A stretch of 64,000 bases of DNA from Candidatus Aenigmatarchaeota archaeon (GCA_016198585.1 JACQII010000016.1:21078-85077), one strand, 5' to 3'. Numbered from the stretch's first letter, positions 51,297-62,596 are shown. Numbers and translations: made by a program. The notes: generated from the letters alone by a model not told the origin.

Positions 51297-52040
51297 ATGA
51301 AGTTCCAGATCGCCGGCGGCTCGATCGCGGGCCGCGACCACCGCCACCCGCTGAATCCCCACAACAACAAGGACGCGTTTGCCTGGCGAACCAGTGAGGG
51401 CGCCACGGCCATCGTCGTCGCCGACGGCTGCAGCAGCGGCAGCCACAACGAGGTCGGCGCCAAGCTCGGGGCGCGCCTGATGGTCGAAGCCCTGCTCCGC
51501 CAGTGGCGGCGTTCCCCGGACTCCGCGGACATCCTGCTCGAGCAGGCCATGCAGGACCTGCTCGCCCAGATCCGGGTCCTGGCCCACGCCATGGGCGGCA
51601 GCTTCAGCGAGACCATCGGCGACTGCTTCCTCTTCACCCTCGGCGGCGCCGTCCTGACGGAGGACCGGTCGCTGGTCTTCTCCGTCGGCGATCCGCTCAT
51701 CATCGTCAACGGCGATGTCGTCCGGTCGGGCGGCTACCCGGGCAACGAACCCCCATACCCGGCCTACGCCCTCCTGGGCGATGAACCGGAGATGAACCGG
51801 CAGGTGGTCAGCGGCGTCGAGTCCGTCCTGATCGGCACGGACGGCGCCGAGGACTTCCGGGCCGCGGAAGGCGCGCATGTGGGCACTGCCCTGATCGGGC
51901 CGATCAGCCAGTTCTGGACGCAGGAACAGTACTTCGCGAACCCGGACAGCGTCCGCCGCACCCTCGCGCTCGCGGCGGCCGCGGCGGGCAGCCCGCTCCA
52001 CGACGACACCACCCTGGTCGTCGCCCGCCGGTGGTCGTAA
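51297..52040 (+). CDS. PP2C-like protein phosphatase (TerY-P triad type)
   Basis: GRDH, NNKDA, VADGCSS, VGD, GTDG, DDTT metal-binding motifs. Confidence 0.88.
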   Translation: MKFQIAGGSIAGRDHRHPLNPHNNKDAFAWRTSEGATAIVVADGCSSGSHNEVGAKLGARLMVEALLRQWRRSPDSADILLEQAMQDLLAQIRVLAHAMGGSFSETIGDCFLFTLGGAVLTEDRSLVFSVGDPLIIVNGDVVRSGGYPGNEPPYPAYALLGDEPEMNRQVVSGVESVLIGTDGAEDFRAAEGAHVGTALIGPISQFWTQEQYFANPDSVRRTLALAAAAAGSPLHDDTTLVVARRWS

Positions 52041-52077
52041 GCACCGGTCCCGGGCGACGACGCGGAGGACAGCGACC

Positions 52078-60299: not shown

Positions 60300-60605
60300 A
60301 TGTCCATGAAGATCATCAAGAAGCGGCAGCAGCATCCTACCCTGGCAGCGCTGCGGCGGTTGGCTGGCTGCCAGCCCCGCCGGCGGATCAAGGTGGGAAC
60401 CATCGGCGACCCCGCCAAAGCGACGCTGTGGCTTACCGCGCGCGGCTTGCTTGAGGAGTACCATGTCTATGCCGCAGGAGCGTTCTTTCTCGGAGGGGGG
60501 TACACGCCGCCGTCCCTCTGGCTGGTCCGCCGCTACGGTCTCACCACCTCGGCCTTGAGAGCGCTCCGTTCCCGCGTGGCGGGACAGCGAAGGAGAGCGT
60601 CATGA
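60300..60605 (+). CDS. Small basic hypothetical protein
   Basis: AAGGAG SD; stop overlaps the nadE start. Confidence 0.5.
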   Translation: MSMKIIKKRQQHPTLAALRRLAGCQPRRRIKVGTIGDPAKATLWLTARGLLEEYHVYAAGAFFLGGGYTPPSLWLVRRYGLTTSALRALRSRVAGQRRRAS

Positions 60606-62596
60606 ACTTCCTCGACGCCCGCGGCCACGGCTTCGTGCGGGTTGCCGTGGCAGTTCCGCCGGTGGCACTTGCGAGCCCGCTGGCCAACGCCCAGGCGCAC
60701 GCCCAGCTCCTGGAGGAGGCCTCCCGCAACGGCGCGATGTACGCCGTCTGCCCGGAACTGGGGCTGACGGGCTACAGCTGCGGCGACCTGTTCCACTCCG
60801 CCGCCCTGCTCGACGAGACGGTCGAGGCGCTGTCGCGGCTGGCCGAGCGGACCGGGCGCATGGAGATGGCGTTCACGGTGGGGATGCCGCTCGTGGTCGA
60901 GGGCAGCGTCTTCAACGCCGCCGTCACCCTGTGCCGGGGCGAGGTGATCGCGGTCGCTCCCAAGACCTACCCTCCCGAGTACCGGGAGTTCTACGAGCTG
61001 CGCCACTTCGCCCGCGCCACCGAGGCGCGGCGTCGCTTGGTCACGCTCCTGGGGAAGGAAGTCCCCTTCGGGAACGACATCCTCGTGCGGTTCGCCGGCG
61101 TGCCGGGATTCGTCCTGCATACTGACGTCTGCGAGGACATCTGGGTCCCGATCCCGCCAGGCACGAAGGCCGCGCTGGCGGGGGCGACCGTCCTGGCGAA
61201 CCTCTCCGCGTCCAACATCACCGTCGGCAAGGCTGCGTACCGCGAGCAGCTCGTGCTCGGGTCGTCGGGCAGGAACATCGCTGTCCAGCTCTACAGCGCC
61301 GCCGGCCAGGGCGAGTCCACCACCGACCTGGCCTGGGACGGGGATGGCTACATCGCCGAACGGGGGATGCTGCTCGCGCGGACCGTCCGGTTCCGGCAAA
61401 GCGTGCTGGAAGGGGAGGTCATCCTGGCCGATGCCGACCTCGGCTCGCTGCTGCAGGACCGGATGCGGCAGGGGTCGTTCCGCCAGAACGCCGCCGACAA
61501 TCAGGCGACGTTCCGGGAGGTCATGGTGCAGGGAGCGCTCGGAAAGGAGGCGTCTCCTGCCCTCCTCTCCTTCCAGCGCTTCATCGAGCCCCACCCGTTC
61601 GTGCCGGCGGACCAGGCAGACCGGGACGATCGCTGCTGGGAGGTCTTCCTGATCCAGGCCACCAGCCTGCGGCGCCGCCTGGAGCACGCGGGCGCGAAGC
61701 GCGTGGTGATCGGAGTTTCAGGAGGCCAGGACTCGACACTCGCCCTCCTGGTGGCGGCCCACGCGGTGGACCTGATGAAGCTCCCGCGGTCTACCATCAT
61801 CGGGATCACCATGCCCGGCTTCGGGACGACAGGCCGGACCAAGGACAACGCCCGGAACCTCGTGGAGGCCCTGGGCGCGACGTTCAAGGAGGTGCCCATC
61901 ACGGGCATCGCCCAGTCCGTGTTCACCGCCGTCGGCCACGATCCGGCGGTCGAGGACCTGGCCTTCCAGAACGTGCAAGCCGTGACGCGCAAGCTGGTCG
62001 AGCTCGCCACCTGCTGGGAGACCGGCGGGTTGGACCTCGGAACCAGCGACCTGTCCGAGTTGCTGCTCGGCTGGACGACCATGTTCGGCGACCACGCCAG
62101 CCACTACGGCGTCAATGCCGGGGTGCCCAAGACCCTGGTCACGTCCCTGATCCGGTGGTCGTGCGAACACGTGTTCAGCAAGGAGCCGCCGGTCCAGGCC
62201 GTCCTGGACGACATCCTCAAGACCCCGGTGTCCCCGGAGCTCACCCGTCCGGGCGCGCAGGGCGAGATCCTGCAGCGGACCGAAGACCTGGTCGGGCCGT
62301 ACGAGCTGCACGATTTCTTCGGGTACTGGTTCGTGCGGTTCGGCTATCCGCCGTCGAAGATCGCGCGGATGGCCCTGGCGGCCTTCGGCGGGAGGTACGA
62401 CATCGCCACGATCAAGAAGTGGCTGCGCGTCTTCCTGGTCCGGTTCTTCGCCAACCAGTACAAGCGGTCGTGCCTGCCCGACGGCCCGAAGGTCGGCCTC
62501 ACGTGCGTTTCGCCCCGCGGCGACTGGCGCATGCCGTCGGATGCCACGCCGGAGGCGTGGCTCGCGGACCTCGATCGCGTGCCCGACGCGGTCTAG
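60602..62596 (+). CDS. nadE: Glutamine-dependent NAD+ synthetase (nitrilase + synthetase domains)
   Basis: PELGLTGYSCGDLF, PKTYPPEYREFYE, DVCED, GVSGGQDST, ELGPYELHDFF-like GPYELHDFF, QYKR. Confidence 0.95.
   Translation: MNFLDARGHGFVRVAVAVPPVALASPLANAQAHAQLLEEASRNGAMYAVCPELGLTGYSCGDLFHSAALLDETVEALSRLAERTGRMEMAFTVGMPLVVEGSVFNAAVTLCRGEVIAVAPKTYPPEYREFYELRHFARATEARRRLVTLLGKEVPFGNDILVRFAGVPGFVLHTDVCEDIWVPIPPGTKAALAGATVLANLSASNITVGKAAYREQLVLGSSGRNIAVQLYSAAGQGESTTDLAWDGDGYIAERGMLLARTVRFRQSVLEGEVILADADLGSLLQDRMRQGSFRQNAADNQATFREVMVQGALGKEASPALLSFQRFIEPHPFVPADQADRDDRCWEVFLIQATSLRRRLEHAGAKRVVIGVSGGQDSTLALLVAAHAVDLMKLPRSTIIGITMPGFGTTGRTKDNARNLVEALGATFKEVPITGIAQSVFTAVGHDPAVEDLAFQNVQAVTRKLVELATCWETGGLDLGTSDLSELLLGWTTMFGDHASHYGVNAGVPKTLVTSLIRWSCEHVFSKEPPVQAVLDDILKTPVSPELTRPGAQGEILQRTEDLVGPYELHDFFGYWFVRFGYPPSKIARMALAAFGGRYDIATIKKWLRVFLVRFFANQYKRSCLPDGPKVGLTCVSPRGDWRMPSDATPEAWLADLDRVPDAV

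Follow-up and report, generated by a model that had tools for sequence, protein, structure and literature searches.

Two described kinds of gene set come close to the locus analysed here: the TerY-P triad, a presumed phosphorylation switch, and the Preiss-Handler operons, which serve deamidating salvage of nicotinamide adenine dinucleotide (NAD+). The locus lies at positions 51297-62596 of a 64,000-nucleotide (nt) stretch of DNA from Candidatus Aenigmatarchaeota archaeon (GCA_016198585.1 JACQII010000016.1:21078-85077), hereafter the window, and it joins the two kinds: genes for a PP2C-type phosphatase, a protein kinase, a long nicotinamidase (PncA) and a von Willebrand factor A (vWA) fold protein, together called the tetrad, stand with the salvage genes pncB and nadE. 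An archaeal host, an insertion site, a pair of SLOG proteins, a radical S-adenosylmethionine (SAM) enzyme and a Crn4-family protein are what the window adds. In most microbes the recycling of NAD+ starts with nicotinamidase, and we know of no dedicated control of this enzyme by protein phosphorylation. The E. coli YegI/PphC/YegL set is a triad of the TerY-P kind, and Rodionov et al. reportedly described NrtR-regulated NAD+ salvage operons in 2008.

The TerY-P triad (Anantharaman, Iyer & Aravind 2012, via PMC11090510) combines a vWA protein that has a metal ion-dependent adhesion site (MIDAS) with a PP2C-type phosphatase and with a Ser/Thr kinase carrying a Zn ribbon at its C terminus. Phages are also known to carry NAD+ genes: gut 'NAD-jumbo phages' have pncB-nadD-nadE clusters and pncA with no signalling genes (PMC11662467), and a PncA-like gene of phage G was left unexplained (PMC12484599). 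Three phage NAD+ reconstitution pathways (NARPs) have been defined, NARP1 consisting of Adps and Namat, NARP2 of Nampt and Nmnat (10.1101/2024.02.11.579819), and NARP3 of PnuC and NadR (PMC13464706). Full-text searches of the literature found no paper linking a nicotinamidase to a kinase/PP2C/vWA set.

The locus comprises ten open reading frames (ORFs), all on the + strand and tightly packed, with intergenic distances of −4 to 148 nt, and the gene set that a first-pass annotation had listed here from the sequence is confirmed. The gene identities named in it were checked by profile, by the fold of AlphaFold2 (AF2) models compared with Foldseek, or by catalytic residues, and all of the enzyme identities held. 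Coding sequences were assigned to families with Pfam, NCBIfam, PADLOC and PHROG profiles, and structures were sought by sequence matching against PDB. The annotation had proposed that the ten genes form one system; this was rejected, as no second locus carries the full set. The triad and the nicotinamidase do co-occur in other genomes as it had supposed, and PncB, NadE, the SLOG pair and the radical SAM gene each recur beside or with this core, but all ten are found together nowhere else. The radical SAM gene, the Crn4 gene and an ORF of 101 amino acids (aa) are missing from all of the 80 best PncA loci, which also contradicts a ten-gene unit. The genes thus split into a core tetrad, PncB and NadE as frequent neighbours, the SLOG pair and the radical SAM gene as rarer recurrent accessories, and Crn4 as separate cargo.

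All four tetrad proteins have the catalytic or metal-binding residues expected of their folds, in agreement with the earlier claim that the motifs are intact. The PP2C-type Ser/Thr phosphatase (component 1; 51297..52040, +) matches Pfam PP2C_2 at 6e-16 and has a conserved set of metal-binding Asp residues (D26, D43, D132, D182 and D236/237). The protein kinase (component 2; 52078..53934, +; 618 aa) gives weak profile and sequence matches; its AF2 model (predicted local distance difference test score, pLDDT, 90) divides into a kinase fold at residues 1-295, which matches protein kinases structurally in Foldseek, a Zn ribbon at 298-313 and an all-beta C-terminal domain at 324-618. Among homologues, K36/K39, D147, N152 and D164 are invariant, as are the ribbon cysteines C298/C301/C310/C313, and the ribbon weakly matches the Nop10 type. 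The 363-aa protein of 54029..55120 (component 3, +), with a Pfam Isochorismatase match under the cut-off and weak, motif-level matches to solved nicotinamidases, is a predicted nicotinamidase of a long, PncA-like form, in which the catalytic D56, K232 and C284 and the metal-site D104/H106 and H198 are invariant. The vWA-fold protein (component 4; 55131..55961, +; 276 aa; AF2 pLDDT 85) matched no Pfam, NCBIfam, PADLOC or PHROG profile, and its own profile found no match in PDB; its top 50 Foldseek matches are all vWA or I-domains, and 18 homologues show no change at the MIDAS residues D69/S71/S73, T138 and D174.

To quantify how constant the tetrad is, partners were counted in the best 80 of the 435 long-PncA loci found in species-representative genomes, and a partner was scored where at least 3 kb of flank upstream (kinase and PP2C) or at least 1 kb downstream (vWA) was present. 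The kinase was found in 58/64 related loci, PP2C in 57/64 and the vWA gene in 75/78, and the order PP2C-kinase-PncA-vWA was invariable in these best 80 loci; in each of the four loci that have no triad, PncB adjoins the long PncA. Relatives of the long nicotinamidase number more than 3,800 at 55-67% identity. The hosts of the best loci are mainly Myxococcota, together with Elusimicrobia, Patescibacteria and one 1.1-Mb genome labelled gammaproteobacterial. Counted with the PncA search and not with the kinase profile (many kinase candidates per genome, 8 scored), the tetrad was seen in 8 of the 151 genomes sampled from the Sorangium phylum (about 5% of the sampled Myxococcota) and in 7/401 sampled Patescibacteria (1.7%), five of these seven copies being more divergent and keeping the same gene order. 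Copies in this order are present on large IMG/VR contigs too. A remote version at 27-32% identity, with a PncA of about 265 aa, is found on IMG/VR contigs in the order PncA-vWA-PP2C-kinase or other permutations, one of these contigs being 27.8 kb long with 27% GC and encoding DnaB, a primase and a ligase, and also in uncultured huge phages of 462-595 kb. The observation that the nicotinamidase sits inside the triad therefore extends to nearly all related loci, and the partnership survives the changes of gene order in phages. Because the four genes stay together across divergence, rearrangement, cells and phages, the tetrad is best read, from this comparison of gene content and order, as behaving as a single functional module across bacteria and huge phages. 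In a tree of the kinase, a well-supported Myxococcota/Elusimicrobia clade excludes the window copy, which shares an unresolved polytomy with copies from Patescibacteria and from large IMG/VR contigs.

Several variants of the tetrad were seen. Archangium and Hyalangium loci (L014, L017, L033, L040, L042 and L054) have several kb between kinase and PncA and keep all four genes. In some relatives (L143 11850-13718; P0002, P0022) an N-terminal domain of about 240 aa precedes the long nicotinamidase in one fused protein; this domain has no Pfam or PDB sequence match (P0002, P0022) and is absent from the window protein. In one patescibacterial locus (L002 12142-13209) the vWA gene is directly followed by a further long PncA, a divergent paralogue of the first. 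Some IMG/VR contigs with a divergent PncA encode a sigma-70-like protein nearby (L120 2706-6902; L115 18243-19181), the gene order in the first of these being sigma-PncA-NadE-PncB.

Compared with the TerY-P triad, the window likewise encodes together a MIDAS-bearing vWA protein, a PP2C and a kinase with a C-terminal Zn ribbon, presumably a phosphorylation switch in both cases. It differs in that a nicotinamidase is the fixed fourth member, that an extra beta-rich domain of about 300 aa follows the Zn ribbon of the kinase, and that the vWA protein is recognized by its fold and by no vWA or TerY sequence profile. Further, no ter genes stand among the annotated neighbours, as had been stated before, no PADLOC TerY-P model matches, and the neighbours are NAD-synthesis genes, in place of restriction or DNA-processing genes.

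Those neighbours are PncB, a nicotinate phosphoribosyltransferase (57778..59019, +; NF003704 at 442 bits against a cut-off of 379), and NadE, a glutamine-dependent NAD+ synthetase (60602..62596, +), which has CN_hydrolase and NAD_synthase domains and an SGGQDS P-loop in its translation. Going by these identities, the genes of the island cover three steps, nicotinamide to nicotinate (PncA), nicotinate to nicotinate mononucleotide (NaMN; PncB) and nicotinate adenine dinucleotide (NaAD) to NAD+ (NadE). PncA, PncB and NadE are thereby brought together as in pncA-pncB-nadD-nadE operons of the Preiss-Handler kind, and the closest relatives of the locus resemble these further: the neighbours in L001, L002 and L087 are NrtR, PnuC, a fusion of NadD with NAD kinase (NADK), an ADP-ribosylglycohydrolase (ARH), Nudix, PncB, phosphoribosyl pyrophosphate (PRPP) synthase and NadE, and the NAD clusters around the tetrad in the closest relatives also hold a NadR-like kinase. 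In Myxococcota, the tetrad stands alone, outside any NAD cluster. In contrast to Preiss-Handler operons, the PncA of the window is a divergent form of about 350 aa within a kinase/phosphatase/vWA unit, nadD and nrtR are absent from the island, genes for SLOG, radical SAM and Crn4 proteins lie among the others, and the host is an archaeon.

The window DNA is archaeal and encodes exosome subunits, FttA, a proteasome subunit, prefoldin and SBDS; it belongs to a 183-kb contig of a metagenome-assembled genome (MAG) of about 0.94 Mb that is 76% complete. The tetrad and its neighbours lie in an island of about 16 kb (about 46.7 to 62.6 kb) with a GC content of 0.68-0.70, compared with 0.63 elsewhere. 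To its left is the native archaeal exosome gene rrp4 (45898..46656, −; Pfam RRP4_S1/KH), and to its right are a Nudix hydrolase gene outside the island (62721..63200, +; GC 0.60-0.63) and the native sdo1/SBDS gene (63197..63892, −; Pfam SBDS N, II and C domains). The Nudix gene is taken as native since a same-genus relative has its orthologue beside sdo1. In three same-family relatives rrp4 directly follows sdo1, so that the island splits a conserved gene pair. The island is best read as bacterial-type DNA that was inserted into the genome of a small DPANN-type archaeon, with rrp4 on one side and Nudix/sdo1 on the other. None of 40 relatives has the long nicotinamidase, and no flanking att-type direct repeats were found at the island borders.

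What the island would contribute to this archaeon was examined through the NAD+ genes of its relatives. A NadM-like archaeal gene is present in about 9-11 of 26 relatives, a short NadE occurs in the genomes of the same relatives, and the two stand together on a tiny contig of a same-genus relative (G001:C106 9-1303). Judging from these genes, the lineage is predicted to run NaMN to NaAD to NAD+ natively. A PncB-family gene was found in 0/25 relatives. As PncA and PncB are missing from relatives in which NadM and NadE are present, the island would add the production of NaMN from nicotinamide or nicotinate. In this genome itself, TIGR01527 has no match in the assembly, though it matches in relatives, queries with PnuC and NadR found nothing, and the sole cytidylyltransferase-like gene encodes a 129-aa protein that is read as RibL-like; the native pair of NadM and NadE is either in the missing 24% of the assembly or lost.

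We favour the reading, at a probability of roughly 55%, that the island carries a phosphorylation-gated entry into NAD+ salvage that was acquired by transfer between domains. The C-terminal domain of the kinase would sense a signal, upon which the kinase would phosphorylate the vWA protein, the nicotinamidase or both, and PP2C would reset the phosphorylation state. The MIDAS site of the vWA protein could act as a phospho-peptide or acidic-peptide adaptor to PncA, to the kinase or to both. Such a switch would gate the deamidation of nicotinamide and with it entry to Preiss-Handler resynthesis of NAD+; the same reaction would also remove nicotinamide, a product inhibitor of NAD-consuming enzymes. 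If this holds, a TerY-P-like phospho-switch would be tied to a defined metabolic reaction, and the function of the triad could be read by a simple enzyme assay. The window would also represent a further transfer from bacteria to a DPANN archaeon, one that supplies two salvage steps which the lineage lacks and lies inside a conserved exosome gene cluster.

Several points weigh against this reading. An NaMN adenylyltransferase (NadD or NadM) was not found in the island, and the complete rebuilding of NAD+ by island genes, as had been proposed in the first-pass annotation, fails at this step. The 76%-complete assembly likewise yielded no NadM, NadD, NAD kinase or PRPP synthase in tblastn and profile searches, which leaves a complete route in the cell hypothetical. 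NrtR is absent from the island, though it stands beside the tetrad in the closest relatives. The island includes a sigma-70 gene of bacterial type, and sigma-70 has, to our knowledge, no partner in archaea. Expression in the archaeon, the roles of the SLOG proteins and of the radical SAM enzyme, and both the signal and the phospho-target are inferred, and the switch itself is a prediction from sequence and structural models. Finally, the patchy occurrence of the tetrad in the sampled phyla, its presence on phages and the ring nuclease carried with it fit a role in conflict equally well.

The 'NLTPH protein' of the earlier annotation (59956..60288, +; 110 aa) is a Crn4-family ring nuclease with a known function of its own. 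It matches Crn4b (PDB 9r7b) at 9e-8, Crn4a (PDB 9sma) at 2e-6 and PADLOC Unk_01 at 7.5e-19. The protein aligns with Crn4 over the full length and keeps T7/H9/R95 at the catalytic T-x-H and Arg positions (PMC12830947). Its gene is placed differently, between the radical SAM gene and nadE and with no type III CRISPR locus beside it; the annotations of the island and flanks include neither cas nor CARF. Crn4 looks like an independent cargo gene, whose product is predicted to degrade cyclic oligoadenylates.

These features could also belong to a counter-defence cargo, in which the tetrad with PncB and NadE would be a NARP-like NAD+ reconstitution system of mobile elements and huge phages, switched on when NADase-type immunity cleaves NAD+ to ADP-ribose and nicotinamide, and would form an anti-defence package with Crn4; on balance we consider this unlikely. 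Phage and huge-phage contigs carry the tetrad, in many cases together with PncB and NadE, and reconstitution of NAD+ is an established phage strategy (10.1101/2024.02.11.579819; PMC13464706). Crn4 relatives sit on phage-like contigs, one of them near NadE, Crn4b has been proposed as an anti-CRISPR on mobile elements (PMC12830947), and the assembly shows, in a crude repeat scan, no CRISPR array through which Crn4 could have a native role. Yet the majority of tetrad copies are chromosomal (Myxococcota, Patescibacteria), the patescibacterial ones adjoin NrtR, a regulator of the housekeeping type, and a full NAD operon, and the island has no integrase or phage structural gene. The deamidating route would, we reason, be slow and ATP-costly for an acute response. 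With NARPs the tetrad shares a possible purpose, the rebuilding of NAD+ from breakdown or salvage products, and the occurrence in phages; it differs in its deamidating route, its enzymes, the attached signalling triad and its mostly cellular copies. No NARP1, NARP2 or NARP3 pair is among the island annotations, all of which are of other kinds; PnuC and NadR queries were negative in the genome, and no search with dedicated models was made for Adps, Namat or Nampt.

More speculative, and to our mind less probable still, is the idea that the tetrad is a signal-gated switch in an NAD+ arms race, common to huge phages, mobile islands and host-dependent cells (bacteria of the candidate phyla radiation, CPR, and the DPANN archaeon). 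The beta-domain of the kinase, with a SLOG heterodimer where present, would then detect the products of NADase attack and turn nicotinamide recycling on, and the radical SAM enzyme would catalyse, on a pyridine or adenine nucleotide, a radical reaction that no NAD pathway yet includes. A tetrad shared by huge phages and ultra-small symbionts bears on the contest over NAD+ between hosts and parasites.

A TerY-P-type anti-phage defence, in which the kinase would activate PncA on infection, and the destruction of nicotinamide would deprive phage NAD+ reconstitution of the nicotinamide that it needs and free host NADases from product inhibition, is improbable. TerY-P-like triads act as stand-alone defence systems (Gao et al. 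2020, via PMC11090510), the distribution of the tetrad is patchy and island-like, and PP2C and the kinase weakly match candidate defence families in PADLOC. However, PncA, the vWA protein and the SLOG proteins have no defence-family match and the TerY-P model of PADLOC finds nothing, phages themselves carry the tetrad, and its steady partners are NAD-building genes and not NADases.

The locus could lastly be an inert passenger or an artefact, that is, a chimeric join in the MAG or recent bacterial DNA silent in the archaeon, as the raised GC, the bacterial-only features (sigma-70, the lipobox protein and ParB), the absence of the island from every relative and the incomplete MAG might suggest; this is equally improbable, since both flanks are native and jointly restore the ancestral sdo1-rrp4 adjacency, so that a chimeric assembly would need two independent joins, the 14 family-supported island genes (the 101-aa and border ORFs aside) are all intact and have a GC content at third codon positions (GC3) of 0.86-0.97, a strong high-GC coding signature, and a same-genus relative also has foreign DNA at the site.

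The foreign DNA of that relative (L097, G001:C9, 4264-5326) is unrelated, of low GC, and follows sdo1-Nudix, where the contig ends; the rrp4/Nudix-sdo1 site may be an insertion hot spot.

The phosphorylation-gated salvage that we favour concerns the tetrad, and the accessory genes beside it offer further candidates in NAD chemistry, namely the SLOG pair and the NAD-linked radical SAM family. SLOG 1 (56055..56804, +) and SLOG 2 (56820..57629, +) are LSDAT-type proteins that pass the PF18171 (LSDAT_prok) cut-off of 25.4 bits with 34.3 and 27.6 bits, respectively. The ORF of SLOG 1 opens with GTG at 55980, and the ATG at 56055 agrees with its orthologues. The two are ancient paralogues, the duplication being old because orthologous pairs are present in L001 and L007. 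Among 401 Patescibacteria genomes the pair is found in two, both of them among the seven tetrad-positive genomes, adjacent to the tetrad in one and 110 kb away as a two-gene operon in the other; none was found in IMG/VR, and the SLOG, vWA and radical SAM proteins had no PHROG match. Set beside other LSDAT/SLOG proteins (PF18171; the TRPM N-terminal domain; ThsA of Thoeris, PMC7272460), both keep a GG-x-x-T-x-x-E motif that resembles LOG/SLOG ligand sites. Unlike ThsA and TRPM, they are stand-alone tandem paralogues with no fused SIR2, TIR or transmembrane (TM) domain and are linked to NAD salvage genes. As for Thoeris itself, no island protein has a SIR2 or TIR domain, the SLOG proteins have no PADLOC match, and there is no TIR partner. 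An NAD-derived nucleotide is the probable ligand or substrate of the pair; the sensing of NAD+ breakdown products supposed in the first-pass annotation is conjecture.

The radical SAM enzyme (59030..59959, +), of an unnamed family linked to NAD genes, has a Radical_SAM domain with a CxxxCxxC motif (C15/C19/C22) and four further conserved cysteines (C164, C185, C255 and C259); it has no sequence match in PDB, and its homologues were found at 44-64% identity. In Uhrbacteria and other contigs the gene lies between PncB and NadE, and among about 29 loci of 8 kb or longer from scanned metagenomes, 14 had PncB, NadE or both within 8 kb of it; two of the loci near PncB/NadE also carry a divergent tetrad. 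The enzyme resembles MoaA (GTP 3′,8-cyclase) and prokaryotic viperins in its radical SAM core, in extra conserved cysteines able to hold a second cluster and in a likely nucleotide substrate. It differs from both in score, with 38.7 bits against 284 for MoaA and 17.5 against 180 for viperin, and in its partners PncB and NadE. It probably acts on a nucleotide of the NAD pathway.

The small ORF noted in the first-pass annotation (101 aa; 60300..60605, +) is not supported as a gene: neither Pfam, NCBIfam, PADLOC and PHROG profiles nor a comparison of related loci gave a family or homologue, and its coding statistics are weak, with a GC content of 0.58 at second codon positions (GC2) and a GC3 of 0.78 that are atypical for the island.

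Upstream of the tetrad, the left border region (46720..47769, +) contains small ORFs that look transmembrane, have no Pfam or PHROG match and lie where GC climbs from 0.57 to 0.67. It is followed by further island cargo: a polyphosphate kinase 2 (47770..48783, +; Pfam PPK2, 5e-65), the full-length bacterial sigma-70-family factor (48990..49877, +; Pfam Sigma70 r2, r3 and r4), a ParB-like protein whose gene overlaps that of sigma-70 (49802..50776, +; Pfam ParB_N and HTH_ParB), and a 122-aa protein (50838..51206, +) with a lipobox-like signal, AVTAC, read from the sequence, for which family searches gave no match. Elsewhere in the window, Rfam matched tRNAs of 111 and 116 nt at 8431-8541 and 33660-33775, which were missed by ARAGORN and probably contain introns.

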